64,000 nt of DNA, taken from contig CBDBON010000002.1 in NCBI GenBank assembly GCA_965208395.1, forward strand, positions 532,010-596,009. Direction: 5' to 3'. The notes under the pieces were generated by a model. That model was given only the letters and a program-made list of their open reading frames with translations, had not been told where the DNA came from and did not search any database. Positions 33,278 to 56,176 of the stretch are shown piece after piece (the first letter of the stretch is position 1; every line of letters starts with the position of its first letter). A program made the translations under genes and the position numbers. The stretch comes from Dehalococcoidia bacterium. Its GTDB lineage: Bacteria > Chloroflexota > Dehalococcoidia > Lucifugimonadales > CBDBON01.

Positions 33278-33314
33278 AAGAGAACGTATCCACCAAAACT
33301 ATTCCGTTATTGCT

Positions 33315-40019: not shown

Positions 40020-40835
40020 ATGCCGACTGTCAAACACGAAACGTTCTTTCGCCGGCACCCGGTGTTCACCGGAGTGGAATTGGCTGAACACCTCTCCTCC
40101 AGCGGCGAGAAGGGGACGAGAACGCAAGAATCTCTGATTGCCTACCACACCGGAACAGGGCGCCTGGTCCGTGTTCGACGGGGACTGTTCGCCGTCATCC
40201 CACCGGGCGCGGACAGCGATACCTATCCCATAGACCCCTTCCTGATCGCGTCCAGGCTCACGCAGGATGCGGTCCTGTCGCACCACACGGCGCTGGACTT
40301 CCACGGGCGGGCCTACTCGGTCTGGAGACGCTTTACCTACCTGGCGTCGCGTCCTCTGGAGCCGCTGACCTTCCGCCACCATGTCTACCGGGGAGCCAGA
40401 TTTCCGGAGGCGCTTGTCCGTGTGGGCGGGGAGCAAGTCGGCGTGACAATGGCCGAGCGTGCCGGCATGTCGCTTAGGGTCACGAGCCTTGAGCGCACGC
40501 TCGTGGACATTCTCGACCGCCCGCACATCTCAGGAGGCTGGGAGGAAATATGGCGCTCTCTAGAGACGGTTGAGTTCTTCGACCTCGACAGAATCGTGGA
40601 ATATGTCCTTCTGCTTGGGAAGGCGACCACGGCCTCGAAGGTAGGCTACTACCTTGAAGAGCACCGAGAGTCATTGATGGTTGAGGAACGTCATCTCAAT
40701 GCACTCCGCAGTCGACGTCCTCGGCAGCCCCACTACGTCGATCGGAGTAGAACCGGGGATGGGAGCCTCGTGGCCGCATGGAACCTGGTCGTTCCGACCG
40801 AGATAATCGAGAGATCCTGGGCCGAGGTGACATGA
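40020..40835 (+). CDS. abiEi: AbiEi-family type IV antitoxin / transcriptional regulator
   Basis: ..FTGVELAE..GRLVRVRRGLFAVIP..PFLIASRL..AVLSHHTALDFHG.. matches the AbiEi pattern. Its stop overlaps the next ATG. Confidence 0.8.
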   Translation: MPTVKHETFFRRHPVFTGVELAEHLSSSGEKGTRTQESLIAYHTGTGRLVRVRRGLFAVIPPGADSDTYPIDPFLIASRLTQDAVLSHHTALDFHGRAYSVWRRFTYLASRPLEPLTFRHHVYRGARFPEALVRVGGEQVGVTMAERAGMSLRVTSLERTLVDILDRPHISGGWEEIWRSLETVEFFDLDRIVEYVLLLGKATTASKVGYYLEEHRESLMVEERHLNALRSRRPRQPHYVDRSRTGDGSLVAAWNLVVPTEIIERSWAEVT

Positions 40836-41830
40836 GGGTTTCTCTTGAGAGGCTGGCGCTGGATGCGGAGGCGACCGGGTTCCAGCCGGATGTGCTGGAG
40901 AAGGTGGTACAGCTGCTGGGGTTGCTTGATGCCATCCGCAGCCACCCGTTCTTAGCAGGAAAGCTGGCCCTCAAGGGAGGGACTGCGTTGAACCTCTTTG
41001 TGTTCGACGTACCGAGACTATCCGTTGACATCGATCTGAATTACGTGGGCGCCGAGACAACTGAAGCCATGCTGGAAGAACGCCCCCGGATCGAGGACGC
41101 GATGCAGGCTGTCTTCAGCCGAGAGGATTTCGCCATTAGGAGGATTCCTGAAGAACACGCGGGAGGAAAGTGGTCGCTGCGCTATCCGGCGGCCTCGGGG
41201 CAGAGCGGTAGGATCGACGTGGACGTCAACTACATGTACCGCGTGCCCCTGTGGCCGATCACGGTCATGGAGTCCCGGCCTGTGGGTAGCTGGCGGGCAA
41301 CAGGTATCCCAGTGGTTGACAAGCACGAGCTGGCGGCAGGAAAGCTTGCAGCACTGTTGACCCGCCGCAGGGCGAGGGACCTGTTCGACAGCAGCCTGAT
41401 CCTCTCTATTGATGGTCTCGATGTCGAAAAGCTCAGAACCGCATTCGTGGTTTACGGGGCCGGGGTTAGGAGGGACTGGCGCACGGTCTCAGTCGAGGAC
41501 ATGGCGTTCGACCCGGAGGAGCTATCTAGCCAGCTTGTGCCTGCGTTGCGCGGTGGTCGTATGCAAGGCGTTGATGCGGCCGCCTATGGCAATGACCTCG
41601 TACGCAAATGCCAGCGGGTGCTGTCTGATCTCTTACCGTTCAAAGACGAGGAACGAGCATTCCTAGACCTTCTGCTGGACGCTGGTGAGATCGACGCGAG
41701 TCTCCTCACGACTGAGGGGGAGCTAAAGAACCGCATCCAGGCTCAACCACTGCTTGAATGGAAGGCCCAGAACGTAAGGCGTCACAAGGGACTCTTGTCA
41801 GACCAAGTTGAAGGGGATCACAGAAAGTGA
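40832..41830 (+). CDS. abiEii: AbiEii/AbiGii nucleotidyltransferase toxin
   Basis: FLAGKLALKGGTALNLFVFDVPRLSVDIDLNYVG is the hallmark AbiEii NTase block. Confidence 0.85.
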   Translation: MRVSLERLALDAEATGFQPDVLEKVVQLLGLLDAIRSHPFLAGKLALKGGTALNLFVFDVPRLSVDIDLNYVGAETTEAMLEERPRIEDAMQAVFSREDFAIRRIPEEHAGGKWSLRYPAASGQSGRIDVDVNYMYRVPLWPITVMESRPVGSWRATGIPVVDKHELAAGKLAALLTRRRARDLFDSSLILSIDGLDVEKLRTAFVVYGAGVRRDWRTVSVEDMAFDPEELSSQLVPALRGGRMQGVDAAAYGNDLVRKCQRVLSDLLPFKDEERAFLDLLLDAGEIDASLLTTEGELKNRIQAQPLLEWKAQNVRRHKGLLSDQVEGDHRK

Positions 41831-43044
41831 GCAGCGTATTCAGCAGAGAACCCCAACCTGATGAACTCTACCGATTTCGGTCCATCGACGCCCTTCTTGG
41901 GTCTCGCAAGGAACTGTCTCGTCAAACCATATATCTAGCTAGGCCAGACGAGTTGAACGACTTGGCAGAGGATACGGTAAATGTGGTTTGGAGTGGCGAC
42001 GATGTCCTGTGGGCGAATCTAATCACCTACTACTGGAGATCACTTCTACTCTCATGTACCACGGGCGACATCTTTCTTCCGGGGTATCACTTCATACCTG
42101 GCCGCCTGGGCTTGGATGACCCTCCACTGGGTCCTCTAATCGACCAGGGAGTTGCCAGAATACAACAGGAACACGAGACTCAAAGGGTGGCTGCACTGAC
42201 GGAACTCCGGCAAAGCAAGGTGCTAGTGTCTGGCTACGAACTGCGAAGGCTACTTTCCACCCTGACCCCTCGCCAGCTTCAACCGTCGTTCTCGGCAGCT
42301 AACCCGCCAGTACTCGATAAGTTCCCGGAGAGGTTCGTGCAAGCCTTGGGCAAGATACTATTGTCAGAATGGGGCGTAGCCTGCTTCACGAAGGACTTCA
42401 CAAATCCATTTTTGTGGTCATCATACGCTGACAGCCATAGCGGAGTCTGTTTGGTGTTCGAGAGAGGGCTCCTGGAGGGCCTCGGAGCCTCAGAGTGGGC
42501 AGAGAGGGTGGAGTTGGCAGATGTAACCTACGAAATCACAAAACCTGAGATAGAATTCTTCGCCAATCTTCCAAGATTGACGGTGTCGGAGTACTCTAAG
42601 CTGTTTACCGGCGAGGACGGGACGCTGAGTCCCCTGTGCCCCTTCTTGCCCGAGGACAGAAAGGTCATTGAAGAGGCAAATGCCAGGCAGCAGACTTTTG
42701 CGCGCGAGAACCTTCTGCTCAAGCAAAAGCACTGGGAGGCCGAGCAAGAAGTTCGCATGTTCAGCCTGTTCTATTTCCACGGGACGATGAACTCGGACCC
42801 TGCCGAACACACGATGCAGTATCCGATAGAGGCACTGAAGGGGATCATCTTCGGCAGCCGCACAACAGAGGCGGACAAGCAAGCTGTGCTGGATGTTGTC
42901 TTGTCTAAGCACTATGTATCTCCAATGAGAGAAGACTTCTGCTTCTGGGAGGCGGAGCTACAACCCAGTGGGTCGATATTCAAGAACTTTTACCAGCCGT
43001 ACATTGGATGGAGACAAGAGTCCGTCTATCCGCGTAAACGATGA
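41827..43044 (+). CDS. DUF2971-family protein, translationally coupled to abiEii
   Basis: The GTG overlaps the abiEii stop (GTGA). The core VACFTKDFTNPFLWSSYADSHSGVCLVFE matches the DUF2971 signature (..W..YA....G.C..F). Confidence 0.6.
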   Translation: MSSVFSREPQPDELYRFRSIDALLGSRKELSRQTIYLARPDELNDLAEDTVNVVWSGDDVLWANLITYYWRSLLLSCTTGDIFLPGYHFIPGRLGLDDPPLGPLIDQGVARIQQEHETQRVAALTELRQSKVLVSGYELRRLLSTLTPRQLQPSFSAANPPVLDKFPERFVQALGKILLSEWGVACFTKDFTNPFLWSSYADSHSGVCLVFERGLLEGLGASEWAERVELADVTYEITKPEIEFFANLPRLTVSEYSKLFTGEDGTLSPLCPFLPEDRKVIEEANARQQTFARENLLLKQKHWEAEQEVRMFSLFYFHGTMNSDPAEHTMQYPIEALKGIIFGSRTTEADKQAVLDVVLSKHYVSPMREDFCFWEAELQPSGSIFKNFYQPYIGWRQESVYPRKR

Positions 43045-43209: not shown

Positions 43210-44850
43210 GTGAATATCTGGGGTGAGAGATTCGCGGAAGTTCAACTGTTCGTGGGATATTGCCGGGACTTGGGAGTCGGGACCGACCAGCGCGAGTTGG
43301 AACACTACGAAAAGATCGGGGCCATGCTTCCTGTTGCGAGAGTGGTCTACCCGGATGAGTATGTGATACAGAGAGACCAAAGCCAATGGAAAGGGGTCAC
43401 TGATTGGGACGCAACGGATCAATGGCCAGCTCTCGGTCGACTATCGGAGAGAATCGGGCCATTTCCCTTTGGCTACGGAGGATTGGCTGACGAGGAACTT
43501 GTTCATTGCGTTGATCGAGAGATGGAATCGGGCTGCAATCCGCATCTGAAGAGGCCTGGCCCAGACGAATACCGCCCCTGGTCAGACTACAGGGCAACAG
43601 TCCACGACAAACGGGGTAATGCCATCGCGCGGTCCACCGTGGAGCATTACTACAGCTACTGGCAGGTCCATCAACTGTCTTGGATCCAGCAGTATCCCGA
43701 CCTGTACAAAAACGCCCGGCTGATTGAGTGCATACCGGAAGACGATCCAGTTAGGAAGTTCCGGCCATGGGCGCCGAAGAGGGAGCGACTCGTCGAGTTC
43801 GACGGTAGGAGACGTGGCTTTGATGCGCTTTCGTTTTGGGTCACGGTCTTTGAAAGAGAGCGGGGACGTACTTTCGCCAGCATCGCCGAGTCAAATGGGA
43901 TCAGGAGACTCGACCATAGCCAGGCCGCCGCCTACAGGACGAGGCTTGGCAACCTTGCTGGGAATGTCGCCGCTCGGTTTGACTTGACCCGTGATGACTA
44001 CTACGGCTTTCTGCGAAGACTCATCGAACTCCTGGAAGACTATAGGCGCAATGAACGCCACAAGCTGGCGGAAGAGTTGAAGAGGGATATCTTCGCCTGG
44101 GAGGAACTCCTCATGTTGGTCACGGGAGAGACGCGGATAGAGGTGGCAGAGGAACTCGGGCAGAAGAGCGTCCATCACGAGCGAATGTTTCGCCACCTTG
44201 ACACTGCGACCAAAGAGCGGGACTACTCCCTAGACCTTCTGAAGAGCGTCGCGACAGCTTGCGGCAGTGCTCTACAGAAACTGGGAGACTCGCAGTGGTC
44301 GTTTACTGAGGCGGATGCGGATGACTTGCTGACGTACTTGGAGCAGGAGGGGCTAGGAATCTTTGTGACGGCGTTGAGTGGAATGATCGCTGTAGGTGAT
44401 GACGAGTATCGACAGAAGTTCACGAGAGTGCAGAAGTACACAAACCTAAAGAACGTGCTCACTGCATACGAGTACTTCTTGAAGAACCTTACGCAGGGGA
44501 CCAGCATAGTCACCGATAAGAAGACCATGACGATGCTCGTCGGCGATGTGATGGCGCATGAGCCGTGGAAGAACTTATTCGGTACGAGGAGTAAACTGGC
44601 CAGTGGAGCCGACAGCCAGGATTTCCTTGCGAATTTGGGCACTCTGCTGTCCGATAGACACTTGAAGGGATCGGTGGAGGGCTATTGGGCGCGACAGTTC
44701 CTTGTTATGTGTCTGGCGAGGAACATGACCGTACACGCCTATCCCAACGAAGACAGCTACTATGGCGACTTCTTTGGGCCGATGCTGGACTCTGCGATCT
44801 GCTCCACTTTCTACACGTGGCGGCTCGCAAAGACAAATGGCTGGATATAG
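43210..44850 (+). CDS. Hypothetical 546-aa protein with a C-terminal RNxxxH (HEPN-like) motif
   Basis: The C-terminal helical region contains ..QFLVMCLARNMTVHAYPNED.. (R-x4-H with Asn after Arg). The N-terminal region is unrecognised. Confidence 0.45.
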   Translation: MNIWGERFAEVQLFVGYCRDLGVGTDQRELEHYEKIGAMLPVARVVYPDEYVIQRDQSQWKGVTDWDATDQWPALGRLSERIGPFPFGYGGLADEELVHCVDREMESGCNPHLKRPGPDEYRPWSDYRATVHDKRGNAIARSTVEHYYSYWQVHQLSWIQQYPDLYKNARLIECIPEDDPVRKFRPWAPKRERLVEFDGRRRGFDALSFWVTVFERERGRTFASIAESNGIRRLDHSQAAAYRTRLGNLAGNVAARFDLTRDDYYGFLRRLIELLEDYRRNERHKLAEELKRDIFAWEELLMLVTGETRIEVAEELGQKSVHHERMFRHLDTATKERDYSLDLLKSVATACGSALQKLGDSQWSFTEADADDLLTYLEQEGLGIFVTALSGMIAVGDDEYRQKFTRVQKYTNLKNVLTAYEYFLKNLTQGTSIVTDKKTMTMLVGDVMAHEPWKNLFGTRSKLASGADSQDFLANLGTLLSDRHLKGSVEGYWARQFLVMCLARNMTVHAYPNEDSYYGDFFGPMLDSAICSTFYTWRLAKTNGWI

Positions 44851-45440: not shown

Positions 45441-45468
45441 TTGACGATTATCCCGCTTTTCATATATT
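45441..45468 (+). promoter_or_regulatory. Candidate sigma70-type promoter of the HTH-ATPase-HK-REC operon
   Basis: TTGACG (45441-45446), 16-nt spacer, TATATT (45463-45468), in a locally AT-rich stretch 36 nt upstream of the first start codon. Confidence 0.35.
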
Positions 45469-45503
45469 ATTGTGGTGTTTGATAGTGTTTCGTTGGGAGA
45501 AGT

Positions 45504-45728
45504 GTGTCAAGAATGTCTACCGAAGAAGGCTGGGTCGGTGTCGCAGAAGTCGCTGCTCACTTACAGGTAGCTAGGGACTCTATCTACCGCTGGATAGACT
45601 CCAAGGGATTTCCCGCTCACAGGGTAGGTCGGTTGCTGCGCTTTAGGCTTTCCGAGGTAGACGAGTGGGTGAAGACTGGCGACAGGGATGTTCCGGGAAC
45701 CTCAGATGCAGACGGGGTAGGCCAATAA
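45504..45728 (+). CDS. Excisionase/MerR-type HTH DNA-binding protein
   Basis: WVGVAEVAAHLQVARDSIYRWIDSKGFPAHRVGRLLRFRLSEVDEWV is the excisionase-family HTH pattern. Confidence 0.7.
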   Translation: MSRMSTEEGWVGVAEVAAHLQVARDSIYRWIDSKGFPAHRVGRLLRFRLSEVDEWVKTGDRDVPGTSDADGVGQ

Positions 45729-45829
45729 AGCGAACGCCGGCGTGGGGACACCCTGCGGCGCGCGAACTGCCGGATGCGCCAAGTTTCGAGGAACCAACCG
45801 CGGCTGTATCGAGGAATCAAAGCTGGAGT

Positions 45830-47689
45830 GTGAATGTGCTGATAGAGCAAGTTCAGATTGAGGATGGATTCCTAGATGGCCTTGACGTTCGGTTCTCAGA
45901 AGGCCTCAACGTATTGATTGGTGCCCGTGGGACCGGGAAGACTTCGCTCATTGAGCTCATTAGGTTTGCTCTCGGGGCCACAGCCTTTACAGAAGACGCG
46001 GCGAGGCGAGGCAACCAGCAGGCGCTCAGCGTTCTCCAAGGAGGACAGGTCACTGTAGTAATTCGCAATGGAGAAGATCGATTTGTCGTGACCAGGGGTG
46101 CTCGCGACGAAGTACCACGCTCCACACACTCTGTTCCTCCCGTCACGGTTCTTGCACAGAGTGAGATCGAAGCCGTCGGTGCCCAGGCAAGCGGGCGACT
46201 CTACCTCATTGACCGGTTCCGGCCCAATCGAGGGGAAGCCGACAAGCGACGTAGCAATCTCATTTCGAAGTTGCGCTCACTCACGGCGGAGATTGGCGGA
46301 ACCCTAAATGAACTTCGGTCGATCAGCGGACAGATACTTGGGATGCAGACGGTGCGCAGTGAGTTGCTGAGTGCGGTCGAACAGCAACAGGACTTGCTGA
46401 AGTCGATAGCAGCAACTGCCAAGGACCGTGAAGAGTTAGCCGAACTCCAGGCTCGTGCGGCCGTACTCGGGGTCCGAAGTGCGGTCTATGAGCGGACCAC
46501 AACCACGTTAAACAGCTTTCGCTGGGAACTTCTCAGTATTGCGCAGGGACTCCACGAGATAGAGGAGTGGCCTGATAGCGCCGGTGAACATGATTTGCTA
46601 GGTGAGGTTAGGGCAAGAAGCACCCAAGCCGCACAAGCCCTGAGAACCACTATAGGCATCGTCGAGAGCGCTGAGGCAGAGGTCCAGAAGTTGATCGAGC
46701 AGAACAGTGCAGATCGACTCAATACCGACGATAGAGCGCGAGCATCCCGCCGCGCATTGGATGAATTGCAGGCCGGTGCTGGAACATTGACCAGAAGAGT
46801 AGAGATCCTCACGGAAAGCGTGGCGCAACTGGGCACGCTAGAGGATCTCGCCAACGATCGGGCTACCAGAGTTGAGGAACTTCAAGGGCAGCGTCGTCGC
46901 GTCTTCGAGCAACTTGAGGAAATGCGAGCGGAGCGATTTGAATCGCGTATCCAAATCGCAAATCGACTCAGGGACGCTCTTGGGCCAGAGATCAAGACTG
47001 ATATCATCGAGTCAGGAATGACCAATAGCTATTCGAATGTTATCGCAGCCGCGTTACGAGGGAGTGGACTGCACTACAACACTCTGGCACCTTTGTTCGC
47101 GGCCCACATGTCTCCGCTCGAATTGGTCGAGGCGGTAGAATCCAACACTGTTCAGGCGATTGCAGAGGCGGTAGAGATTACAAACGAGCGCGCGGCAAAT
47201 GTCATTGCATATCTAAAGTCACGCAACCTCACCGATCTCATCGCCGCACCGATCGACGACGCGGTAGAGCTATATCTATTGGACGGAGTCGAATACAAAG
47301 GATCCGATAACCTATCTATAGGACAGCGATGCACGGTTGTTTTGCCTATTCTACTGAGTGGCCAAGGTGAGTTGCTCATCATCGATCAGCCCGAGGATCA
47401 TCTCGATAATGCGTTCATCACTGAGACATTGGTTGATAGGCTGCGTCATAGACAGAAGGGCGATCAGTTCATACTAGCGTCGCACAATGCGAATATACCG
47501 GTGCTCGGCGAAGCCGACCTCGTCGTTCGCCTCGGTTCTGATGGCCGCCGCGGTTTCGTCGAGCACGCCGATCAGCTAGATGCCCCAGCGACGGTGATGG
47601 CGATCACTTCCGTCATGGAAGGCGGAGTCGAGGCTTTCGAGCGGCGCGCGGCCTTCTATCAGGGCGTACTCGAGGGTGGGCGTGAATAA
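45830..47689 (+). CDS. ABC/SMC-like ATPase with a long coiled-coil-like insert
   Basis: Walker A GARGTGKTS, a Q/E/L/R-rich centre, and C-terminal LSIGQRCTV..LLIIDQPEDHLDNAF..FILASHNANIPVLGEADLVV. The start is GTG 45830 or 45836; the listed 45665 start is an extension. Confidence 0.75.
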   Translation: MNVLIEQVQIEDGFLDGLDVRFSEGLNVLIGARGTGKTSLIELIRFALGATAFTEDAARRGNQQALSVLQGGQVTVVIRNGEDRFVVTRGARDEVPRSTHSVPPVTVLAQSEIEAVGAQASGRLYLIDRFRPNRGEADKRRSNLISKLRSLTAEIGGTLNELRSISGQILGMQTVRSELLSAVEQQQDLLKSIAATAKDREELAELQARAAVLGVRSAVYERTTTTLNSFRWELLSIAQGLHEIEEWPDSAGEHDLLGEVRARSTQAAQALRTTIGIVESAEAEVQKLIEQNSADRLNTDDRARASRRALDELQAGAGTLTRRVEILTESVAQLGTLEDLANDRATRVEELQGQRRRVFEQLEEMRAERFESRIQIANRLRDALGPEIKTDIIESGMTNSYSNVIAAALRGSGLHYNTLAPLFAAHMSPLELVEAVESNTVQAIAEAVEITNERAANVIAYLKSRNLTDLIAAPIDDAVELYLLDGVEYKGSDNLSIGQRCTVVLPILLSGQGELLIIDQPEDHLDNAFITETLVDRLRHRQKGDQFILASHNANIPVLGEADLVVRLGSDGRRGFVEHADQLDAPATVMAITSVMEGGVEAFERRAAFYQGVLEGGRE

Positions 47690-48692
47690 CGAGCAGGCAC
47701 TGGCTGTCTTCGAAGGCACGCCAGCTTCGACTTCTAGCGACCGACTTCGGGCCGCTCGGTTCCTTGCGCAGAATGCGACCAACACCCATCAAACGCGGTT
47801 GACGAAGATTAGGGAGGCCGAACGCAATTCCTGGGTCCGCAAGGCGCTTGATCAAGCCCTGAAACGATCCAGAAAGGGAAAAGCAGAACCCGCGATAGTT
47901 TCCATTGAAGACGTGCAGGAGACACCCATAGACGCCCGCCTCTACGAGGAACTTCGTGCCCAAGCAATAGAAGAGACATCTGCGTGGTTCCTGCATGAGT
48001 TGCGTCCGCTCGTCGGTTTCCTTGATGAGGACGCGGACGCCGAAATAGATCGCTACACATGTAGTAGAACTAAGGTCTCGATAGACCGAGTTCAGTCGTT
48101 CCTTGACGCTATAGACAGACTGCGGAAGGCCGCCGCAGCTCCGGCGATACAGGAATTTGACCTGACCGATCTGGTAGTCCGAGTTGCGGAAGATGAAGCC
48201 AAGCAAGGCAGAGCCGCTCTTCATGACGCCAAAGAGGACGTGAATGAGGACGTCGGTCTAGACGATGACGGGGAATATGTCCCCCAGCAAAGGGTCATCA
48301 CATTGTCGCTCGCCCGTCGGGAGCCAGTCATCACGGCGGGTGATCCTCAACTGATCGAAATGGCAGTCGCAAACGCCCTTCGGAATGCAATCGAAGCTGT
48401 CATGGAGGTACAAGAGGAGGACCGACGGGACGTTACCCTCAATTGGGGTATAACCGATACTGATAGTTGGATCGTGGTATTAGACGAAGGATGCGGGCTT
48501 CCGCCAGGATCGGATCGTCTCACCGTGCCCGGTGCCAGTACCAAGTCGAAGAGTGGAGGCAATCTAGGAATGGGGTTGCCGATAGCACTAAGAGCAATGG
48601 AATCGATGCGAGGAACGTTGCAACTTACACCCCGGTCGGGTGCTGGCGTTTCATGTGAGATCCGATGGCCTTACGGAGATATGGTCGAGTGA
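47676..48692 (+). CDS. Soluble histidine kinase (no TM segments; HEAT-like N-terminus)
   Basis: H-box FLHELRPLVGF, N-box ANALRNAIEA, G1 VLDEGCGLP and G2 GGNLGMGLPIA. It overlaps the ATPase stop by 14 nt. Confidence 0.75.
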   Translation: MGVNNEQALAVFEGTPASTSSDRLRAARFLAQNATNTHQTRLTKIREAERNSWVRKALDQALKRSRKGKAEPAIVSIEDVQETPIDARLYEELRAQAIEETSAWFLHELRPLVGFLDEDADAEIDRYTCSRTKVSIDRVQSFLDAIDRLRKAAAAPAIQEFDLTDLVVRVAEDEAKQGRAALHDAKEDVNEDVGLDDDGEYVPQQRVITLSLARREPVITAGDPQLIEMAVANALRNAIEAVMEVQEEDRRDVTLNWGITDTDSWIVVLDEGCGLPPGSDRLTVPGASTKSKSGGNLGMGLPIALRAMESMRGTLQLTPRSGAGVSCEIRWPYGDMVE

Positions 48693-49873
48693 AAGTCCTA
48701 ATCGTTGAGGATGAGACAGACGTCATAACTAGGCTCGATGAGCGCCTACTTCGGTCAACACCTGGCATTGAGACTGTCATCGCGCGCAGTAGGTCCAGTG
48801 GGATTGCAGTACTCCGAAACGATGAGTTTGACTTCATTATCTGCGATTTACGGCTGCCACCTAATGACGGAGGCCTGGATACAGACGAGGCACACGGACT
48901 TGCGGTATATGCGGAGTCAAGGAGCGTCTGTCCTGGCACGCCTTGCTTGTTCTTTACTGGGTTTGACACAAGTCCAGAAGTTAAAGAGCAGCTTTCGAGC
49001 GGCGGAACACACGATATCTTTGGAACTAGTGAAAGCTATGCTATGACGCGAATCCTGACCAAAGATAGATTCTTATCATGTATAGAACGGCTGGAGGCCT
49101 TCAATACGGAACTGGCCGTACTGGACGCAATCGACATTGAACTTTCTAGTGGTAACCGTAATCTTGATCAGTTCGAAGAACGTGCGTTGCAAATGCAAGC
49201 AAGGTCTCTAGGTGCGGAGAGCATTGAAGCTAGCGCTCTAGGTGGACTTTCTGGTGCTCAGACTATGAGAGCGTGGTTTAAGGACGAACAGGAGCGCACA
49301 CTTGGTTCCTACTTCGTTAAGATTGATAAGCGGGCGAACATAGAGAAGGAACGGAAGAACTACCATCAACACGTCAGCCCACTTCTTAAGATGGGGCACT
49401 ATCCTGCGCTAACTCGTGACATTGTGGCGGGTATAGGCAAACGAGAGGCTCTCTTCTACCAGCTAGCAGACGACTATGTAGAGAGTCTGTTTGACGTTCT
49501 GGAGAATTGTGAGAGCGCTGCAATATCTGCAGTAAAGGAAGTGCGGAGCATTCTAGCTCCGTGGGCCGATGTGAGTGCAAAGAAAACCGTACACGTTCGT
49601 GATCTTAGGACACTGCGAATCGACGAGACAGATTTCCAACCATATCGTGATGCCCTTGGCTTCACAGAACGATTCGAAGTCATCAAACTGGAGATGACGA
49701 CAAGTCGTCAGCATGGAGACCTACACGGGTTCAATATCCTCTGCAACGACTCCGGTACTCCAGTTGTCATAGATTTCGGTAACGTAGGACCTGCACCAAC
49801 TTGCATCGATCCGGTAATACTGGAGCTTTCTGTCTTGTTCCATTGTCAAACGCCAGGAGCTATGTACCAGTAG
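48665..49873 (+). CDS. Response-regulator receiver fused to a protein-kinase/APH-like domain; 3' end replaced by IS21 sequence from nt 49844
   Basis: REC blocks: KVLIVEDE, DFIICDLRLP, LFFTG. Kinase-like blocks: YFVKID, HGDLHGFNILC, VVIDFGNVG. The last 9 codons (CQTPGAMYQ*) lie inside the IS21 left inverted repeat. An alternative GTG start at 48689 overlaps the HK stop. Confidence 0.7.
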   Translation: MALRRYGRVKVLIVEDETDVITRLDERLLRSTPGIETVIARSRSSGIAVLRNDEFDFIICDLRLPPNDGGLDTDEAHGLAVYAESRSVCPGTPCLFFTGFDTSPEVKEQLSSGGTHDIFGTSESYAMTRILTKDRFLSCIERLEAFNTELAVLDAIDIELSSGNRNLDQFEERALQMQARSLGAESIEASALGGLSGAQTMRAWFKDEQERTLGSYFVKIDKRANIEKERKNYHQHVSPLLKMGHYPALTRDIVAGIGKREALFYQLADDYVESLFDVLENCESAAISAVKEVRSILAPWADVSAKKTVHVRDLRTLRIDETDFQPYRDALGFTERFEVIKLEMTTSRQHGDLHGFNILCNDSGTPVVIDFGNVGPAPTCIDPVILELSVLFHCQTPGAMYQ

Positions 49874-49975
49874 AAGGAGAGATCGCCAGGACCTTTAGAC
49901 CACTTCGCCAGGAGGATGACCACCCTGGGCGCCGGATTGGCGACCATTGCTGGAGCCTTGATGCAAGGAGCAGCG

Positions 49976-51562
49976 ATGGCGTACAGGGAGGTGTCGAGAG
50001 TGGAGATAGCAGAAGTGGTCCGACGCTGGCAGTCGGGTAACAGCCAGCGGCAGATAGCGACCGGTACAGGTTTGTCGCGGGCGACAGTCCGCCGGTACAT
50101 CGCGGCGGCGCTGGGAGCGGGTCTGACGCGCGACGGTCCGGCTGCGAGCGAAGATCAACTGAGTCGTCTGTCTGGGCTGAACGTGAGCAGTCCTCGGAAG
50201 GTCGAGGCACCGACCGAGGAGATACTCGCCCCATGGGCCGCCCAGGTCTACGAGTGGCTGACCGCCGATAGGTTGCAACTGACCCGCATCCACGAGTTGC
50301 TTGCGGACCGGAACTGCCGGGTCTCCTACACATCGTTGAGGAGGTTCATCCAGCGACGGGGCTGGCAGAGGCGAAGTCCAACGACGGTCCGGATGGGAGA
50401 GAGAGCGCCGGGCGAAGTGGCGGAGATGGACTTCGGTCGCCTGGGCCTGATGGAAGACGCTGAGACCGGCCGCCGCCGCGTGGTCTGGGCCCTGATCGTC
50501 GTCCTGACGTACTCGCGGCACAGCTTCGTCTGGCCGACCTTCAGCCAGAAGCTCGTCGACGTGATCGACGGGTTGGAGGCTGCCTGGGCCTTCTTCGAGG
50601 GTGTGCCCAAGTACCTGGTGATCGACAACTTCCCTGCGGCCGTGGCCGGCCCCGACCGGCTCCATCCCCGCCTGACGCGCGGCTTCCTGGAGTACTCCCA
50701 GCACCGGGGCTTCATCGCAGACCCCGCAAGGGTGCGCCATCCTCGCGACAAGCCGCGTGTGGAGCGCGGAGTGCCCTACGTCCGCGAGAGGTTCTTCAAG
50801 GGAGGGACCTTCACCGACCTTGCGGACATGAGGTCTGAGGCCAGGCGGTGGTGCGTGGAGGTGGCCGGCCAGAGGGTGCACGGCACCACCCGCAGGCAGC
50901 CCCTGACCGTCTTCCGGCAGGAGGAGCGCAGTGCGTTGGGGGAGTGGAACGGAGAGCCCTACGAGATGACCGACTGGCGCACTGCCAAGGTCCATCCCGA
51001 CCACCACGTGGCCTGCCAGTACGCCCTCTACTCGGTGCCGTCTGAGATATGTCCGCCCGGCCAGAAGGTGGAGGTGCGGCTCGGCAGCAAGCTGGTGCGC
51101 ATCTACTACCGGGGCAGGCTGATCAAGGTCCACCCACGGAAGGGCCGCGGCGGCAGGTCCACCGACCCTGAAGACTACCCGTCGGAGCTGAGCGCCTACA
51201 CCCTCAGGGCTCCTGATCGGATCAAGCTCAGCGCAGCTTCGCACGGACCGGCCGTGGCGGCCTATGCCGAGCGCCTCTTCGACGGCCCACTGCCCTGGGC
51301 CAGGATCCGGCAGGGGCACAAGCTCATACGGTTGGGAGAACGCTACTCCCCTGAACGTCTCGACGCTGCCTGCCGCAGGGCTCTGTCAGTAGACCTGATC
51401 GACGTGGCACGTCTCGAGCGCATCCTCGTAGAGGCCCTGGAGCAGGAGACAGCGGAGACAGAGCCTCCACCGATGCCTCCGGGTCGGTTCGCCAGGTCCG
51501 GGTCCGTCTTCGCTCATGCCAACGGCATCGCCACTCAACCAGCACAAGGAGAATGCCCATGA
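49976..51562 (+). CDS. istA: IS21 transposase IstA
   Basis: N-terminal HTH (MAYREVSRVEIAEVVRRWQSGNSQRQIATGTGLSRATVRRY), a DDE integrase core (..MDFG..VLTYSRHSFV..VIDN..PKVERGV..) and a C-terminal region. Confidence 0.9.
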   Translation: MAYREVSRVEIAEVVRRWQSGNSQRQIATGTGLSRATVRRYIAAALGAGLTRDGPAASEDQLSRLSGLNVSSPRKVEAPTEEILAPWAAQVYEWLTADRLQLTRIHELLADRNCRVSYTSLRRFIQRRGWQRRSPTTVRMGERAPGEVAEMDFGRLGLMEDAETGRRRVVWALIVVLTYSRHSFVWPTFSQKLVDVIDGLEAAWAFFEGVPKYLVIDNFPAAVAGPDRLHPRLTRGFLEYSQHRGFIADPARVRHPRDKPRVERGVPYVRERFFKGGTFTDLADMRSEARRWCVEVAGQRVHGTTRRQPLTVFRQEERSALGEWNGEPYEMTDWRTAKVHPDHHVACQYALYSVPSEICPPGQKVEVRLGSKLVRIYYRGRLIKVHPRKGRGGRSTDPEDYPSELSAYTLRAPDRIKLSAASHGPAVAAYAERLFDGPLPWARIRQGHKLIRLGERYSPERLDAACRRALSVDLIDVARLERILVEALEQETAETEPPPMPPGRFARSGSVFAHANGIATQPAQGECP

Positions 51563-52344
51563 CCACCGCCACCGAACTGACGCCGCTGCTCAAGCGCCTC
51601 AAGCTCGGAGCCATGCTCAACACACTGCCCGAGAGGATCGCCCTCGCACGCAGAGAGGAGCTCGACTACGCATCCTTCCTGCAGGTGATCCTCACCGACG
51701 AGGTCAACCGCAGGGACCACAGGCGACTGGAGCTCCGACTCCAGCAAGCCGGCTTCGATCAGGTCTGCCGCCTCGAAGACTTCGACTGGTCCGCATCCAT
51801 CACGCTCGACCGCCGGCTCCTCGACGCCGCCTTCTCACTCCAGTTCCTACCGCGCAACGAGCACGTCCTGCTCGTCGGCCCGGTCGGCGTGGGCAAGAGC
51901 TTCCTCGCACAGGCTCTAGGATATGCAGCCGTCCGGGCGGGACACTCCGTCCGCTTCATACGCGCAGACGACTTCTTCAGGGCCATGGCCCAGGCCAGGG
52001 TGGACCACTCCACCGACAAGACCTTCCGGTCCTTCCTCTCCCCAGACCTGCTCATCCTCGACGACCTCGGTCTCCACAGGCTGGCTCAGCAGCAGTCGAT
52101 AGACCTCTACGAGCTGGTCATCGCTAGGCACCGCACTTCCAGCTTCGTCGTCACATCCAACAGGGCCGTCGACGAGTGGCTCGGACTCTTCGACGATCCC
52201 ATCCTGGGCAACAGCGCCCTCGACCGGCTCGCCAACGCCAGCTACCAGATCGTTATCGAGGGCGACAGCTACCGGCAACGTCTGTCACCACACAGGGCGC
52301 TGCTCGACAGAAAGGAGGTGGTTGACCCTCAAACGCCGCAGTGA
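51553..52344 (+). CDS. istB: IS21 helper ATPase IstB
   Basis: Walker A GPVGVGKSF, Walker B LLILDDLG and the tail DRLANASYQIVIEGDSYR. It overlaps the istA stop. Confidence 0.9.
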   Translation: MPMTTATELTPLLKRLKLGAMLNTLPERIALARREELDYASFLQVILTDEVNRRDHRRLELRLQQAGFDQVCRLEDFDWSASITLDRRLLDAAFSLQFLPRNEHVLLVGPVGVGKSFLAQALGYAAVRAGHSVRFIRADDFFRAMAQARVDHSTDKTFRSFLSPDLLILDDLGLHRLAQQQSIDLYELVIARHRTSSFVVTSNRAVDEWLGLFDDPILGNSALDRLANASYQIVIEGDSYRQRLSPHRALLDRKEVVDPQTPQ

Positions 52345-52444
52345 TAATAGTCCGCATACCGGTTCTCAGGGTGGCTCAATGATCCTGGCGACGACTGGTA
52401 CATAGGTCTTGGCGAACGACAAACAACTCCGTATCCAACAGTCG

Positions 52445-53134
52445 ATGATGTCTGAGGCCCAGCGATCGATGTCGGCTTTGATGACTTCCTATCGTATGTT
52501 CGGCGAGTCAATCCGAGGTATGGATGATCTGATAGAGTTGCCGTCTTTTGTGTTGCCTGGTGCGACTCGAGAGATAGCCATTACCGGTCACGTCTTGGAT
52601 GTACTCTACACCGCAGAAGATGAAACTCAAGAGGAAGCCGGAGAACCAGAACCCTACCCCATAGTAGAGGAGGAACTTTGGGACTCTGATCTGATCGCCT
52701 TGCTGGAGCGAGTAGGCCCCCAGTTTGTCACGATTTACAGAGGCGCAGTGGCCGCTCTGGACGGTAACAACCCGGATCGCTCGCGGCATGTACTGACTTC
52801 CTTCCGGGAGTTATGGAATCATCTTCTCCGCAAATTGGCACCGAAGAGAGAAGTGGGAGATTGGATTCAGGAACACGGCATTCAAGGATATCTACAAGAC
52901 GGAGAGCCCACGCGACGTGCCAAGATTCGTTACTTGCTGCGGGATCTAGAGGACGAATCCCTGAGAGGATTTGTCGAAGCCGACGCAAGAGCGATGGTGG
53001 AGTTGTACGCACTGTACGGTCGGCTCCATGGACTAGACACCGGTGTTACTGATGAACAACTTCGTGCCGTCGCCTTCAGGACGGAATCTTATCTGAGCTA
53101 CATCCTAAGGGTACGGGAATGGTCCATAGAGTAA
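52445..53134 (+). CDS. Hypothetical protein (helical; no family recognised)
   Basis: Listed ORF 52409..53134, but its TTG start lies inside the IS21 right repeat, so ATG 52445 is used here. It lies between IS21 and an hsdS remnant. Confidence 0.4.
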   Translation: MMSEAQRSMSALMTSYRMFGESIRGMDDLIELPSFVLPGATREIAITGHVLDVLYTAEDETQEEAGEPEPYPIVEEELWDSDLIALLERVGPQFVTIYRGAVAALDGNNPDRSRHVLTSFRELWNHLLRKLAPKREVGDWIQEHGIQGYLQDGEPTRRAKIRYLLRDLEDESLRGFVEADARAMVELYALYGRLHGLDTGVTDEQLRAVAFRTESYLSYILRVREWSIE

Positions 53135-53182: not shown

Positions 53183-53590
53183 ATGAGGACTATACACCCT
53201 ACCGAACCTATAAGCCCTCCAGCGTCGAACGGCTGGGCGAGATTCGGATCCTTCTGGGTGGGGCGGCTCAAGCATCTCGCGATGGTTAACGACGAAGCGC
53301 ACGCTGAGACCAACGATTCCATTTTGAAGATCCAATACGCAATTGGGAATGTTGATTCAGTTGAGGGGATCACGGGTAGGGAGGCCTTGGTATTCGAAGA
53401 TGCTCCTTCGAGGGCGCGCCGCATCGTTCGTCAAGGCGATGCAGTAGTCTCGACGGTTCGCACGTATCTGAGAGCCATAGCCCGAATCGAAGTTGTCAGC
53501 CCTCTCCCCACCGGCAACGTCCGTAGCGACGCCGACTGCCGTCCCCGCTCGGACTCCACCGCTACGAGCTGTAAGTGGCTGGCGGCGTGA
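53183..53590 (+). pseudogene. Type I R-M specificity-subunit (hsdS) N-terminal remnant
   Basis: ..NGWARFGSFWVGRLKHLAMV.. and ..SRARRIVRQGDAVVSTVRTYLRAIARIE.. match the HsdS TRD-end pattern (..GD.l.s.vR.yL..ia..). No second TRD or conserved helices are present, and the tail overlaps the next gene. Confidence 0.5.
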
Positions 53591-55565
53591 TCCCGTGGAA
53601 GATCGAGTATTCTGAGATCACCACATCCTCTCCGTCGATAGTGCCCCAGACCACGATTGTGTAGACACCCATGCCGAACTGACTCAGCACACCCTCGACG
53701 TTTGCACTAACCGTGAAACTGTCTCTATAGACCCTCCACTCGTTGGCGGTGATCCATGGAACCGTGATGAGCTGCCCCACAGGGTTCAGGCTCTTCATAT
53801 AGGTCTCCTGCCAGAACCTGTGAGCTTGATCCGGGGACTGAGGGGCGGGTGCATCCGCCGGAACTTCATACGGACTTGCGCATGGTTTGTGCGACCACGT
53901 GAACTCGTGGGAGTCATAGAACCATCCACCAAGTAGGGGAGCCCTCAATGATGCCACGAGTCGGCCTCTGTCGTAGCAGTAGGTTCTGGATAGTTGTCCT
54001 CTTGTTAGTGATTGTGGAGGCTGATCGTAGAACACCTGAACCCCTAGATCATTGGACAGCTGAACCTCTTCTGAAACCTTCCCAGACAGTTGTAGGACGG
54101 TCCCACTGATGGAGGGTAGTTGATCGTACTGCACGTAGTCTCCCTCGAAGTGCTGATACGTCATCAGGTTGTACCGATCCCAGGCCAATCCTATGTTGAC
54201 CTTCTTGTGGTACTTGTCCAGGATATTACTCCGGTGGCCCTCACTGCTCATCCAGCTGTCCATTGCGTCCTTGATCTCTTCTTTGATTGGGTCTAGGGAA
54301 GTGTACTGGTGTCCTCGCGGGCTTCTGGTCTGTGAGGTGATGCAAAAGTCTAGGCCGAGTCCATTCTCCCCGTTAGACTGGTACCCTCCAGCGAGGCTGT
54401 ACCTCATGTAGGGTTTGAGGCCATCAGAATCCCAGTGAGAGGAGTAGCATCCTGCTAGAGAGACCTCGGCGTGCAGTTGAGCTGCGATGTTATCTCCAAG
54501 GACGACTGGGGGGACTCCGGCTTTGACCCGCTCGGCGTTGATCAACTCCAGCATGTAGAGCTTTTCGTCCATGTGACGAAGATTCGCGCGTGGAACTGAA
54601 GTTGCTGTAGGCACTGGTGTGGGCGTGTTGGTCGGCGTTGCTGTGGGTATCGGTGTGCTTGTTGGCGCTGGAGTAGGTATGGGAGTGGGGGTGCCCGTTG
54701 CTGCCGGCAAGGGTGTGGGCGTGATAGTTGGTGTCGCCGTCGGAGTATGTGTAGGTACGTGCTCAACTGTGGGAACTATAGTTCCCTGGTACCACTGGAC
54801 TCTTCCTCTGTGAAACTGCCTCTCAGTCTTCGTAGGGGTTGAGGTCGGAGTTGGAGTTGGCTCGGCCGTGACTGTAGCCGTGGTAGGAGGCTCTGGCGTG
54901 GATGTCTCCGTGGGAGTAGCTGTCACCACAATGATCTGGGGGGTAGGATCCTCAAAGAACTCTTGGAGATCGTCCCCGTACCTGTCGCCAAGCGCAAAGG
55001 CGACGCCAACGACAGCTGCCAACACAACGATGGATAGCAGGACCTTCACGAAGGGAGATCTTCCACGTCGAGGTGCACCTCCTCGAGACTGACCACCCCA
55101 GCCCCCCTCGGCCCCGAGCGAAGCTCCGCCGCCGAGCATGCCTGCTGGGCTGCCGACCTTGCGGCTAGGTTGATCGGTACGCGGGCGGTCAACACGTGAC
55201 TGGCGAACGGGTGCCTCAGCGTGTGGCTCGCCCAGTGGCGCTCCGGAAACAGGACGCCGGCGGTGCGGTCCCGCGTCTCCTCGATCCACGGGCTCGCCGT
55301 CTCCCTCGACTCCGGGATCAGCTCGTCCCGGCTCTTCCTGTAGTCGATCGTCACCCTCAACGCCGCCTAGAGCTCCGGTTGGACCGGCACCAGACGCGCC
55401 TTCGCGCCTCTCCACCCATCCTTTCCCAAAACACAGTGGGCATCTTGTCCGGGTACCACCAACACTAGTGGCCCACTGGCCGATGACGACACCATCGCCC
55501 TCACATGTCCGGCAGCGTTGCCACTCATGTCCCGGAGCGGGAGCACGGGTTGGTTTCGGCTTCAT
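53562..55565 (-). CDS. Membrane-anchored secreted protein: N-terminal CxxC zinc ribbon, TM helix, T/P-rich linker, CAP/SCP (YkwD-like) domain, C-terminal domain
   Basis: CRTCEGDG...CPLCFGKGW; TM VLLSIVVLAAVVGVAFAL; a long PTPT linker; CAP-like LELINAERVKAGVPPVVLGDNIAAQLHA...SSHWDSDG...GENG...SEGHRSNIL. ATG 55565 overlaps the upstream stop (ATGA). Confidence 0.65.
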   Translation of the reverse strand: MKPKPTRAPAPGHEWQRCRTCEGDGVVIGQWATSVGGTRTRCPLCFGKGWVERREGASGAGPTGALGGVEGDDRLQEEPGRADPGVEGDGEPVDRGDAGPHRRRPVSGAPLGEPHAEAPVRQSRVDRPRTDQPSRKVGSPAGMLGGGASLGAEGGWGGQSRGGAPRRGRSPFVKVLLSIVVLAAVVGVAFALGDRYGDDLQEFFEDPTPQIIVVTATPTETSTPEPPTTATVTAEPTPTPTSTPTKTERQFHRGRVQWYQGTIVPTVEHVPTHTPTATPTITPTPLPAATGTPTPIPTPAPTSTPIPTATPTNTPTPVPTATSVPRANLRHMDEKLYMLELINAERVKAGVPPVVLGDNIAAQLHAEVSLAGCYSSHWDSDGLKPYMRYSLAGGYQSNGENGLGLDFCITSQTRSPRGHQYTSLDPIKEEIKDAMDSWMSSEGHRSNILDKYHKKVNIGLAWDRYNLMTYQHFEGDYVQYDQLPSISGTVLQLSGKVSEEVQLSNDLGVQVFYDQPPQSLTRGQLSRTYCYDRGRLVASLRAPLLGGWFYDSHEFTWSHKPCASPYEVPADAPAPQSPDQAHRFWQETYMKSLNPVGQLITVPWITANEWRVYRDSFTVSANVEGVLSQFGMGVYTIVVWGTIDGEDVVISEYSIFHGITPPATYSS

Positions 55566-56176
55566 TCCGAATAGTCTGACGCACCCATCAGCAACCGTGC
55601 CCATTTTGCCGCAGCGTCCCACGATGCGCGGGCAGGCCGACGATAGCAACCGGGTCGTGCCACAGAATACGCTTTTGTCACATTCCGTATTCCCGGCACA
55701 CGCCTCACTCTTGCATAGGCCTTATCGCCGAGAGCTATCACCGGCAACCCTTCCAAGAGATCCAGTTGCTGACCGAGAAACCGGGACGCACACTCTTTCT
55801 CAGCATCCGACGGAACACGCCCCGCTGCCTCAGGGGCTGAACACAGATATGTCTCGGTTATCCATGCCTTCCTCAATTGATCCCTGAGCCGAAGCCCAGG
55901 GAATACCTGATCCAGCAAGTACCTCAGATTTCTGTGGAAAAGGCTACCGTCTCCACTGAGGAGCCTGAACGTATGCTGACAAGTCTGCGCCAGCTGGTCA
56001 CCCAACTCATACTTTTCCCCCACAAGCGGGTTTCCAGGCTCAGCTACCAAAATCACGACCTCGATCTCATCAATAGACCCCAGGCCACCAACAAACCCGC
56101 GAGGAACGTGGCCCAGTACGGGCTTCCATCTGGCAACTCCTCTGCAGGCACCACTAAAACCCGGACACGGGGGCAT
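55562..56176 (-). CDS. Uracil-DNA-glycosylase-superfamily-like protein (tentative)
   Basis: 204 aa. VVILVAEPGNP resembles the GE(A/G)PG motif of family 4/5 UDGs. A clear HPS-type motif B was not found. Confidence 0.35.
   Translation of the reverse strand: MPPCPGFSGACRGVARWKPVLGHVPRGFVGGLGSIDEIEVVILVAEPGNPLVGEKYELGDQLAQTCQHTFRLLSGDGSLFHRNLRYLLDQVFPGLRLRDQLRKAWITETYLCSAPEAAGRVPSDAEKECASRFLGQQLDLLEGLPVIALGDKAYARVRRVPGIRNVTKAYSVARPGCYRRPARASWDAAAKWARLLMGASDYSE

Follow-up and report, generated by a model that had tools for sequence, protein, structure and literature searches.

Four open reading frames (ORFs) for soluble proteins run in one direction between 45.5 and 49.9 kb of the window, the whole 64,000-nucleotide (nt) stretch of Dehalococcoidia bacterium contig CBDBON010000002.1 (positions 532,010 to 596,009) analyzed here. 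In order, they encode an HTH_17 protein, a Rad50/SMC-like ATPase, a histidine kinase, and a receiver (REC) domain fused to a TCAD9/APH-like kinase (hereafter REC-kinase), the last of which is cut short by an IS21-family insertion sequence. An earlier note, made from the sequence alone, had described this operon as a candidate phosphorelay defense module of four genes, and the four ORFs and every motif it quoted were recovered at the same positions. The last three genes, here called the triad, proved to be a conserved unit found in at least eight phyla.

The 74-amino-acid (aa) HTH_17/excisionase-type DNA-binding protein, which is MAD1-like, is encoded at 45504..45728 (+ strand; HTH_17, 1.4e-14 in Pfam; TIGR01764, 1.3e-13). 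About 35 nt 5' of its gene lies a sigma-70-like motif, TTGACG-16-TATATT (45441..45468, +), with 10 of 12 matches. As the operon's previously suggested promoter, the motif is present and well placed, but sites of its type occur at chance frequency (2 observed versus 2.7 expected in shuffled sequence), and it is position alone that makes a promoter here plausible. The Rad50/SMC-like ABC ATPase follows at 45836..47689 (+; AAA_21, SMC_N, and AAA_23). Its start is GTG 45836, preceded by GGAG at 45825-45828, and not 45665, where the listed ORF began; the product is thus 617 aa long, as in homologues, which corrects the earlier figure of ~619 aa and leaves the ABC/SMC-like assignment and its motifs standing. 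These are Walker A (GARGTGKTS, 45920-45946), the Q-loop (46148-46171), the coiled-coil apex EEWPDSAG (46562-46585), the signature LSIGQR (47312-47329), Walker B/D-loop (47372-47407), and the H-loop (47477-47497), all on the + strand.

The 338-aa histidine kinase is encoded at 47676..48692 (+; HATPase_c, 8.8e-12), with an H-box FLHELRPLVGF containing His107 (47988-48020, +), an N-box (48369-48398, +), and G1 and G2 boxes (48477-48503 and 48555-48581, both +). The REC-kinase gene occupies 48689..49843 (+; Response_reg, 3.5e-8; TCAD9, 4.9e-16; APH, 3.2e-6) and is truncated after codon 385 of ~470. On the + strand it carries the acidic pair of the receiver (48692-48715), the phospho-acceptor Asp in DFIICDLRLP (48830-48859; Asp53 from the 48689 start), the kinase Gly-rich loop (49241-49261), the N-lobe Lys in YFVKID (49310-49327), the catalytic loop HGDLHGFN (49712-49744), and IDFG (49763-49789). 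The ATPase stop and histidine kinase start overlap by 14 nt, and the histidine kinase stop and REC-kinase start by 4 nt (GTGA), the GTG at 48689 agreeing with the N termini of homologues. No transmembrane segment was detected in the four proteins by hydrophobicity in 19-residue windows. The soluble histidine kinase, the fusion of REC to an APH-like kinase, and the start/stop overlaps of the original description were accordingly all upheld.

Conservation and distribution of the triad

With the fourth protein as query, a search of ~5.8 billion proteins returned 122 matches, most of them 465 to 490 aa long and composed of REC and TCAD9. A scan of 185,579 genomes, one per species, gave at least 122 confirmed relatives, of which the best 80 were analyzed; together with earlier contigs, these supplied a set of 73 loci holding all three genes. 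An ATPase gene (~600 to 617 aa) is followed by a histidine kinase gene (~293 to 338 aa) and a REC-kinase gene (470 to 476 aa) in four of four independent gene-called contigs, at identities down to 28%. The genes are colinear and on the same strand in 73 of 73 loci. In 69 of these, the stop codon of each upstream gene falls where the next reading frame is already open, the exceptions being decayed copies. Synteny elsewhere, which the earlier note had named as a check on its module, is therefore found for these three genes. The HTH gene behaves differently: only L001 and L096, the nearest relatives of the window, have it 5' of the ATPase gene, and it was missing from ~70 others when small ORFs up to 900 bp upstream of the ATPase were searched with phmmer at the 73 loci; L097 also lacks it. 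A four-gene core including the HTH gene was rejected on this distribution. Of the module first proposed, the ATPase-histidine kinase-REC-kinase order is the conserved unit, and the HTH gene is a lineage-specific accessory addition, whose product probably acts as a transcriptional regulator in the window's lineage.

Hosts of the triad include Chloroflexota (Dehalococcoidia, SAR202, and Caldilineaceae), many Actinomycetota, Alpha-, Beta-, and Gammaproteobacteria, Acidobacteriota, Nitrospirota, Latescibacterota, Spirochaetia (Spirochaetota), Campylobacteraceae (Campylobacterota), and Obscuribacteraceae (Cyanobacteriota-related). The distribution is nonetheless sparse and patchy, given the number of species genomes scanned. 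Annotated plasmids of Klebsiella, Leclercia, Caballeronia, and Rhodococcus carry the triad, and the REC-kinase gene occurs in 48 plasmid records from ~10 genera (Klebsiella, Leclercia, Pantoea, Vibrio, Rhizobium, Shinella, Phaeobacter, Caballeronia, Rhodococcus, and Piscirickettsia). A distant blastn search with an Enterobacter triad as query gave no match in E. coli. There was likewise no match in 50,697 phage records and just two full-length matches among the 2.9 million contigs of IMG/VR, on which grounds a phage-borne system was rejected. Thirty-six of the plasmids with a REC-kinase gene are from Piscirickettsia salmonis; the one inspected (L089) is decayed, with no annotated ATPase gene and a shortened histidine kinase, set among insertion sequences and toxin-antitoxin pairs, and a C-terminal ATPase fragment persists on some P. 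salmonis plasmids. Five loci have a REC-kinase and neither ATPase nor histidine kinase, four of them forming a sister clade and the fifth an orphan ~3 kb from a conjugative coupling-protein gene. Within the sister clade, L016 is adjoined by a vWA protein with a possible FHA-like C terminus and by an OmpR-type regulator, and L017 has the same gene layout.

Among the triad proteins the ATPase is the most conserved (47 to 85% identity, versus 28 to 73% for the REC-kinase, among listed homologues). Walker A, the Q-loop, the signature LSxGQR, the Walker B/D-loop DQPEDHxDN, and the H-loop HNANIPVLG each show conservation of 90% or more across the 73 sequences. Its nearest solved sequence relative is Rad50. 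The AlphaFold2 model, with a mean predicted local distance difference test (pLDDT) score of 88, has a bipartite ABC head split by an antiparallel coiled coil (helices 132-239 up and 256-382 down), and the apex of the coil carries a conserved EWPxSAG and no CxxC hook. Foldseek matched this model best to Rad50, SMC heads with coiled coils, JetC, MukB, cohesin, condensin, LmuB (including DNA-bound complexes), RecN, and RecF. With all ABC head motifs conserved and the head lobes divided by an antiparallel coiled coil, as in the Rad50/SMC class, the predicted fold places the protein structurally in the DNA-engaging class of ABC ATPases. Neither Pfam nor the model revealed a nuclease or other effector domain in it. 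Against the NCBIfam TrlF-family model (944 positions), the ATPase aligns at 2.3e-73 from profile position 289 to 943 and scores 248 bits, short of the cutoff of 350; by this profile it is homologous over its full length to the ATPase module of TrlF. Ppl, Spaf_1101, and MAD3 gave weaker matches.

The histidine kinase has the canonical features of a two-component kinase, namely, a phospho-His box and a catalytic and ATP-binding (CA) domain with N, G1, and G2 boxes. Conservation in the set of 73 sequences reaches 90% or more at each of residues H107, E108, N233, N237, D270, G272, G274, G298, and G300, and the nearest solved sequence is KinB. The N-terminal ~100 aa are helical; Pfam and NCBIfam identified no known sensor domain, only HATPase_c-type domains and no TPR.

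Full-length REC-kinase homologues are ~470 aa long and were modeled by AlphaFold2 with a pLDDT of 92. Receiver residues E7, D8, D53, and K125 (P0008 numbering) are invariant in a 16-sequence alignment and at least 90% conserved in 73 sequences. In the kinase, G186, S188, K211, E221, H342-G343-D344, N349, and D362 are invariant in the 16-sequence alignment, and the Gly-rich loop, N-lobe Lys, alphaC Glu, HGD...N, and DFG-like Asp are at least 90% conserved in the 73. Judged by these residues, all three triad enzymes look active. Pfam assigns the kinase to TCAD9 (59 bits; gathering score, 40), while its APH match covers the catalytic loop only (profile positions 165-208 of 239, 27 bits). The best PDB matches are APH(3') enzymes, followed by maltokinase, Rv3168, and a steroid kinase, all ahead of eukaryotic-type protein kinases. 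A search of 1.84 billion representative proteins with the kinase domain alone found ~405 clusters at E of 1e-10 or below, and because nearly all of the 150 best listed clusters are ~470 aa long with the kinase domain starting from about residue 150, the TCAD9-type family appears essentially dedicated to REC fusion. The TCAD9 domain has been connected to conflict systems of the vWA-MoxR-VMAP type (PMC10910872). An active APH-like kinase domain, suggested to phosphorylate low-molecular-weight substrates, has been reported as a rare effector in vWA-MoxR conflict systems (PMC7159879); we take it to be Pfam's TCAD9, a name absent from the main text of that paper.

Flanking genes were called by codon usage, with the triad as training set for the model, and the calling was checked at four loci for which reference calls exist. 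Surveyed through ~260 genes lying no more than two positions away from the triad at ~66 loci, the flanks vary by locus and hold no conserved fourth gene. The commonest Pfam families include integrases, resolvases, transposases, HTH_3/31, HEPN and nucleotidyltransferase pairs, Mrr, DNA methylases, and UmuC-type polymerases, with no partition or replication gene among them as a conserved neighbor. Strong PADLOC matches in the flanks include DpdF, DRT8, another DRT, ZorC, BrxA, type I and II restriction-modification components, AbiEii, SoFic, and PDC-S39. On Caballeronia plasmid pSBC2-6 (L088), the triad sits between an integrase and a DUF2971 gene (10578-11333), beside a Hachiman-like DUF1837-helicase pair; on another annotated plasmid it is flanked by two VapBC pairs, and on a third it adjoins Fic/VbhA and a relaxase. 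The flanks are thus rich in mobile-element and defense genes and overall are not the housekeeping or aminoglycoside-resistance contexts that the earlier note had said would count against its proposal. At L097, on the contig of a close relative, an AAA_15/AAA_21 ATPase gene followed by a DUF4276 gene (12416-14346) lies 2.4 kb downstream of the triad, and upstream, on the opposite strand, a HATPase_c_3 (MutL-like GHKL) gene precedes an unannotated 540-aa gene; both pairs may be further defense candidates.

Putative signal flow and rival explanations

We propose that the triad is a mobile three-gene phosphorelay module, most likely for immunity or conflict with foreign genetic elements, and give this reading a probability of roughly 55%. 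Starting from the domain identities, catalytic residue conservation, operon structure, synteny, mobility, and context described above, we infer a signal flow that begins with DNA as the ligand and ends in defense. The ATPase, whose coiled coil has ~110 residues per arm, would be the input and would engage DNA in an ATP-dependent manner, with DNA of phages or plasmids, DNA ends, and intermediates of replication as candidate ligands. It is cast in this role because the histidine kinase has no sensor domain, the sole other conserved protein is an ATPase of the DNA class, and the genes overlap. Under its control, the sensor-less histidine kinase would autophosphorylate on His107 and pass the phosphoryl group to receiver Asp53 of the REC-kinase (counted from the 48689 start). 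The phosphorylated receiver would in turn switch on the fused APH/TCAD9-type kinase, which could then modify a small molecule or protein target, halting phage replication or host growth. The two halves of this logic have precedents in Detocs and in Lamassu-type systems, in which SMC-like sensors hold effectors in check. More tentatively, since we think it somewhat less probable than an even chance, the triad could represent a new anti-phage or anti-plasmid class in which an SMC-type DNA sensor is wired into a His-Asp relay and a receiver-gated kinase aborts infection; the target of the kinase, proposed just as tentatively, could then be a nucleotide, a metabolite, or a protein.

Several points weigh against a role in immunity. 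A recognizable defense gene lies within two genes of the triad at roughly a quarter of loci, a rough estimate with no matched background, and some chromosomal triads (L002 and L005) lie among ordinary metabolic or housekeeping genes. The sister clade (L016, L017, L021, and L045, all Dehalococcoidia metagenome-assembled genomes) keeps a REC-TCAD9 protein of 36 to 38% identity without the ATPase or histidine kinase, and in the three loci checked (L016, L021, and L045) an inositol-monophosphatase-family gene adjoins it. The nearest solved structures to the effector are small-molecule kinases (APH and maltokinase). Defense is a candidate role drawn from context, and both the contact between ATPase and histidine kinase and the binding of DNA by the ATPase are presumed. 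The copy in the window is moreover truncated.

The housekeeping neighborhoods would also suit a non-immune accessory signaling module of mobile elements or chromosomes, in which the ATPase monitors DNA damage, replication stress, or plasmid state and the kinase tunes maintenance, partition, dormancy, or stress tolerance. Many plasmid copies do lie near replication, relaxase, or toxin-antitoxin genes, the PGAP annotation pipeline gives the ATPase a "double-strand break repair" Gene Ontology term, and the related TRL operon was found by a growth-temperature and not a phage phenotype. We nonetheless consider such a module, and equally the division of labor it implies, unlikely: the very sparse and patchy distribution, the hypervariable flanks, the frequent decay (in the window copy and in Piscirickettsia), and the bona fide defense systems recurring beside the triad are the usual signatures of conflict systems and favor one over a maintenance function, and the conserved neighbors include no partition or replication gene. 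Another possibility turns the signal around, with the relay and kinase sensing some other input and phosphorylating the ATPase, which would clamp, compact, or exclude DNA like the cores of Wadjet and Lamassu. The ATPase is indeed the best conserved of the three proteins, and its fold neighbors are DNA-manipulating machines; set against this, it has no nuclease or other effector domain, neither the histidine kinase nor the REC-kinase has a recognizable sensor domain, and a REC-fused domain is the output in known two-component logic, so we regard reversed flow as improbable. Less probable still, to our minds, is an inducible small-molecule kinase, for example, one that serves resistance or detoxification by acting on an aminoglycoside-like antibiotic or some other metabolite, with its activity regulated by the two-component pair. 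The order of structural matches, headed by APH(3'), the HGDLHxxN catalytic loop of APH/choline-kinase type, and the low-molecular-weight substrates suggested for the vWA-MoxR kinases all point that way. However, the Pfam APH match is partial, TM-scores to APH are just ~0.55 (normalized to the target), no NCBIfam resistance model matched the REC-kinase, the flanks hold no recurrent resistance genes or integron context, and an obligatory Rad50/SMC-like partner does not fit a resistance enzyme. The protein thus does not fall into the aminoglycoside-resistance APH class.

The triad might, finally, be a known system, named in a paper or tool outside our search and broken here. Names were sought in PADLOC-DB 2.0 (2023), NCBIfam release 20 (June 2026, including MADS1 and Ppl), Pfam, RefSeq annotation, and a full-text literature search over open-licence papers and bioRxiv, and the 2023 date of the first and the scope of the last leave some room for this. 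In PADLOC-DB 2.0, the histidine kinase had no match at E of 0.01 or below, the REC-kinase had a REC-only match (PDC-M60B), and the best match of the ATPase was mad3 (62 bits). NCBIfam release 20, with its recent MADS and Ppl models, gave only generic histidine kinase and response regulator matches for the histidine kinase and REC-kinase and the sub-threshold TrlF match for the ATPase. RefSeq names are also generic ("AAA family ATPase"; "HAMP domain-containing sensor histidine kinase" or "ATP-binding protein"; "response regulator" or "phosphotransferase"). No description of the triad was found in the literature search; the legend of Fig. 6F in the DefensePredictor paper abbreviates REC and HATPase domains, and its main text does not tell which system is meant. 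We therefore think it improbable that the system has been named already, and the earlier note's failure to recognize one agrees with these searches.

IS21 insertion and the surrounding island

The IS21-family element that truncates the REC-kinase gene spans 49844..52421 (+) and encodes istA (49916-51562, +; IstA, 9.8e-64) and istB (51553-52344, +; IstB, 3.8e-66). Its terminal inverted repeats are 29 nt long (49843-49871 and 52394-52422) and 83% complementary. Native REC-kinase sequence ends ...LELSVLFH at codon 385 (nt 49843), and the final nine codons and stop (49873) of the fourth ORF derive from the left end of IS21. No target-site duplication was found at the flanks of the element, which differ from one another, and a tblastn search with the last ~90 residues of two homologues did not find the missing C terminus in the 64-kb window, which contains no second IS21 copy. 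A simple insertion with the 3' end kept downstream was rejected on these grounds; the missing duplication and the absence of ~85 codons from the window point to an IS-associated deletion that removed them. These codons correspond to the C-terminal helical subdomain, helices 398-469, of a full-length homologue as modeled by AlphaFold (pLDDT of 92). The local effector is therefore most likely inactive and the local operon copy non-functional. The event looks recent, because the ATPase and histidine kinase genes are intact with all their motifs. At the right end of IS21 begins a pP_pnuc_1 gene (52409-53134; pP_pnuc_1, 7.4e-22; PADLOC Aga_Nuclease, 2.4e-8) for a predicted pPIWI-associated nuclease, with a likely ATG at 52446, 24 nt beyond the element; the same deletion may have affected its 5' region. 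No Argonaute gene was found within ~3 kb on either side, the only interval screened.

In the region that includes the operon, guanine-plus-cytosine (GC) content is 0.50 to 0.58 across 33-50 kb (with one 1-kb bin, 40-41 kb, at 0.61) versus 0.60 to 0.67 in the preceding 33 kb. Two serine recombinase genes, one at 30880-32496 (+; Resolvase, Recombinase, and Zn_ribbon_recom) and one at 32408-33241 (-), sit where GC drops from ~0.63 to 0.55 and probably mark the integration end of a defense island. They are followed by a LexA/S24-peptidase-like regulator (33117-33995) directly 5' of a PADLOC-assigned type III CBASS, with cyclase (34004-34972), HORMA (34979-35482), TRIP13 (35493-36434), and SAVED-nuclease (36431-37885) genes. 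A 278-aa ORF (37914-38750) without Pfam or PADLOC match comes next, then AbiEi/AbiEii (40020-41830, PADLOC), a DUF2971/PDC-S31 gene (41827-43044) overlapping it by 4 nt, and, before the HTH gene, a 546-aa ORF (43210-44850). The AT-shifted island with CBASS and AbiE in the earlier note is borne out by the GC dip and these assignments. Its HEPN-like gene was not identified, the candidate being the 546-aa ORF, which has no Pfam or PADLOC match. The island thus runs from the recombinases through LexA/S24, type III CBASS, AbiE, and DUF2971/PDC-S31 to the operon, IS21, and the pP_pnuc_1 gene. Further along, 53562-55649 (-) encodes a 695-aa Pro/Thr-rich protein that combines a CAP (cysteine-rich secretory protein) domain with a DnaJ-type CXXCXGXG zinc-finger motif near its N terminus.

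Comparison with known systems

The triad is unnamed in the sources searched and is distinct from Detocs, MADS, TRL/Ppl, and vWA-MoxR systems, each of which it resembles in part. With vWA-MoxR-VMAP systems it shares a TCAD9/APH-like kinase family as an effector-type domain. However, vWA, MoxR, and VMAP are absent from the operon and from its recurrent neighbors, and the triad kinase is fused to a receiver with a histidine kinase beside it, while a survey in 2020 listed no histidine kinase domains among vWA-associated effectors (Kaur et al. 2020, PMC7159879). The HTH protein resembles MAD1 (59 bits, cutoff of 80) and the ATPase weakly resembles MAD3 (62 bits), but the published model of MADS (mad1-8) makes MAD6, MAD7, and MAD8 mandatory, and a methylase, a specificity subunit, and a kinase also belong to that system, whereas the operon has no MAD6, MAD7, or MAD8, no methylase or specificity subunit, and no other mad match.

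Through its ATPase, the triad also resembles the TRL cassette. TrlF is part of the Photorhabdus "temperature restriction locus" TrlR-TrlF-TrlG, found via a growth-temperature phenotype, and TrlF-family genes are common on plasmids. The triad ATPase aligns across the whole TrlF ATPase module and, for 98% of its length, is 27% identical to a Vibrio TrlF, and the small HTH gene trlR starts the TRL operon much as an HTH gene precedes the ATPase in the window's lineage. TrlF, in contrast, has an N-terminal PHP (histidinol-phosphatase-like) domain, whereas the triad ATPase starts directly with the Walker A lobe, and the partner of TrlF is TrlG (AlbA_2 and HATPase_c_4), whereas those of the triad ATPase are the histidine kinase and REC-kinase. 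Ppl likewise combines PHP and ATPase in a single gene, unlike the PHP-less triad ATPase, which scores 71 bits against an NCBIfam cutoff of 1000, over the C-terminal lobe only, and 57.7 bits against PADLOC Ppl (residues 516-661). On a Vibrio parahaemolyticus plasmid (NZ_CP034301.1, L090; 3224-7137), a TrlF-family gene and an "RNA-binding domain-containing protein" gene, which may correspond to TrlG, lie between pglX and pglZ of BREX-1, and this embedding of the pair in a BREX-1 locus suggests that the TRL cassette is itself a defense-associated module.

In fold, LmuB of Lamassu and JetC of Wadjet combine an ABC head with a long antiparallel coiled coil, as predicted for the triad ATPase, and DNA-bound complexes of both count among its best structural matches. 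The operon has no matches to LmuA or LmuC, nor to JetA, JetB, or JetD; PADLOC LmuB matches cover the first ~90 residues (the Walker A region) at no more than ~42 bits; and the apex of the triad ATPase is the conserved EWPxSAG instead of a zinc hook or hinge.

The nearest parallel in logic is Detocs (DtcA/DtcB/DtcC), a defense system in which a His-Asp relay ends in a REC-fused enzyme (Rousset et al. 2023, bioRxiv 10.1101/2023.01.24.525353). Defense by Detocs requires the phospho-His and phospho-Asp residues, and the DtcC effector is a PNP in ~80% of cases and otherwise an REase (restriction endonuclease), TOPRIM, or transmembrane hydrolase (bioRxiv 10.1101/2023.01.24.525353). Both systems place a cytoplasmic histidine kinase and a response regulator with an enzyme output in one operon, and the earlier note was right both in seeing Detocs logic here and in the differences it listed: no buffer REC, no PNP effector, and an added SMC-like ATPase. 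DtcA has an N-terminal TPR sensor, whereas the triad histidine kinase has no TPR. DtcB is a stand-alone buffer receiver, whereas the triad genes overlap or abut, leaving no room for a fourth gene; Response_reg was not among the commonest flank families at the ~66 loci, a single isolated case (L097) lying 1.8 kb away on the opposite strand. The architecture of REC plus enzyme is common to both, but the triad effector is an APH/TCAD9 kinase and not a reported DtcC enzyme; PADLOC gave it no match past the REC-only PDC-M60B, in a version whose Detocs models are unconfirmed. Lastly, the triad starts with an obligatory Rad50/SMC-like ATPase gene.

Detocs is the only two-component-based immune system described in the literature searched, and its sensor is part of the kinase. 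If our proposal is true, the His-Asp relay would be reusable immune wiring, pluggable to an SMC/Rad50-type DNA sensor and a kinase effector, and the triad would provide the first link between SMC-type ATPases and two-component signaling and would be, among two-component immune systems, the first whose effector is a kinase. As a compact and soluble three-protein system, it would lend itself to studying by what route recognition of DNA by an SMC-like ATPase becomes a chemical signal, and it offers a route to the substrate of the uncharacterized TCAD9 kinase family. Intact triads occur in tractable hosts and plasmids (Klebsiella, Leclercia, Enterobacter, Phytobacter, and Pseudomonas), and four catalytic centers with obvious point mutants make the hypothesis directly testable. 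The residues concerned are Walker A Lys35 and Walker B Glu520 of the ATPase, His107 of the histidine kinase, Asp53 of the receiver, and Lys211 and Asp344 of the kinase. Intact loci include NZ_CP054974.1 38405-42550 (a Klebsiella plasmid), NZ_CP088263.1 76898-81067, NZ_CP171224.1 (Pseudomonas migulae), and NZ_FOYH01000002.1 (Enterobacter), and Leclercia pG3L-1 also carries an intact triad. Set beside Detocs, the triad is a candidate variant of two-component immunity combined with an SMC-like sensor.

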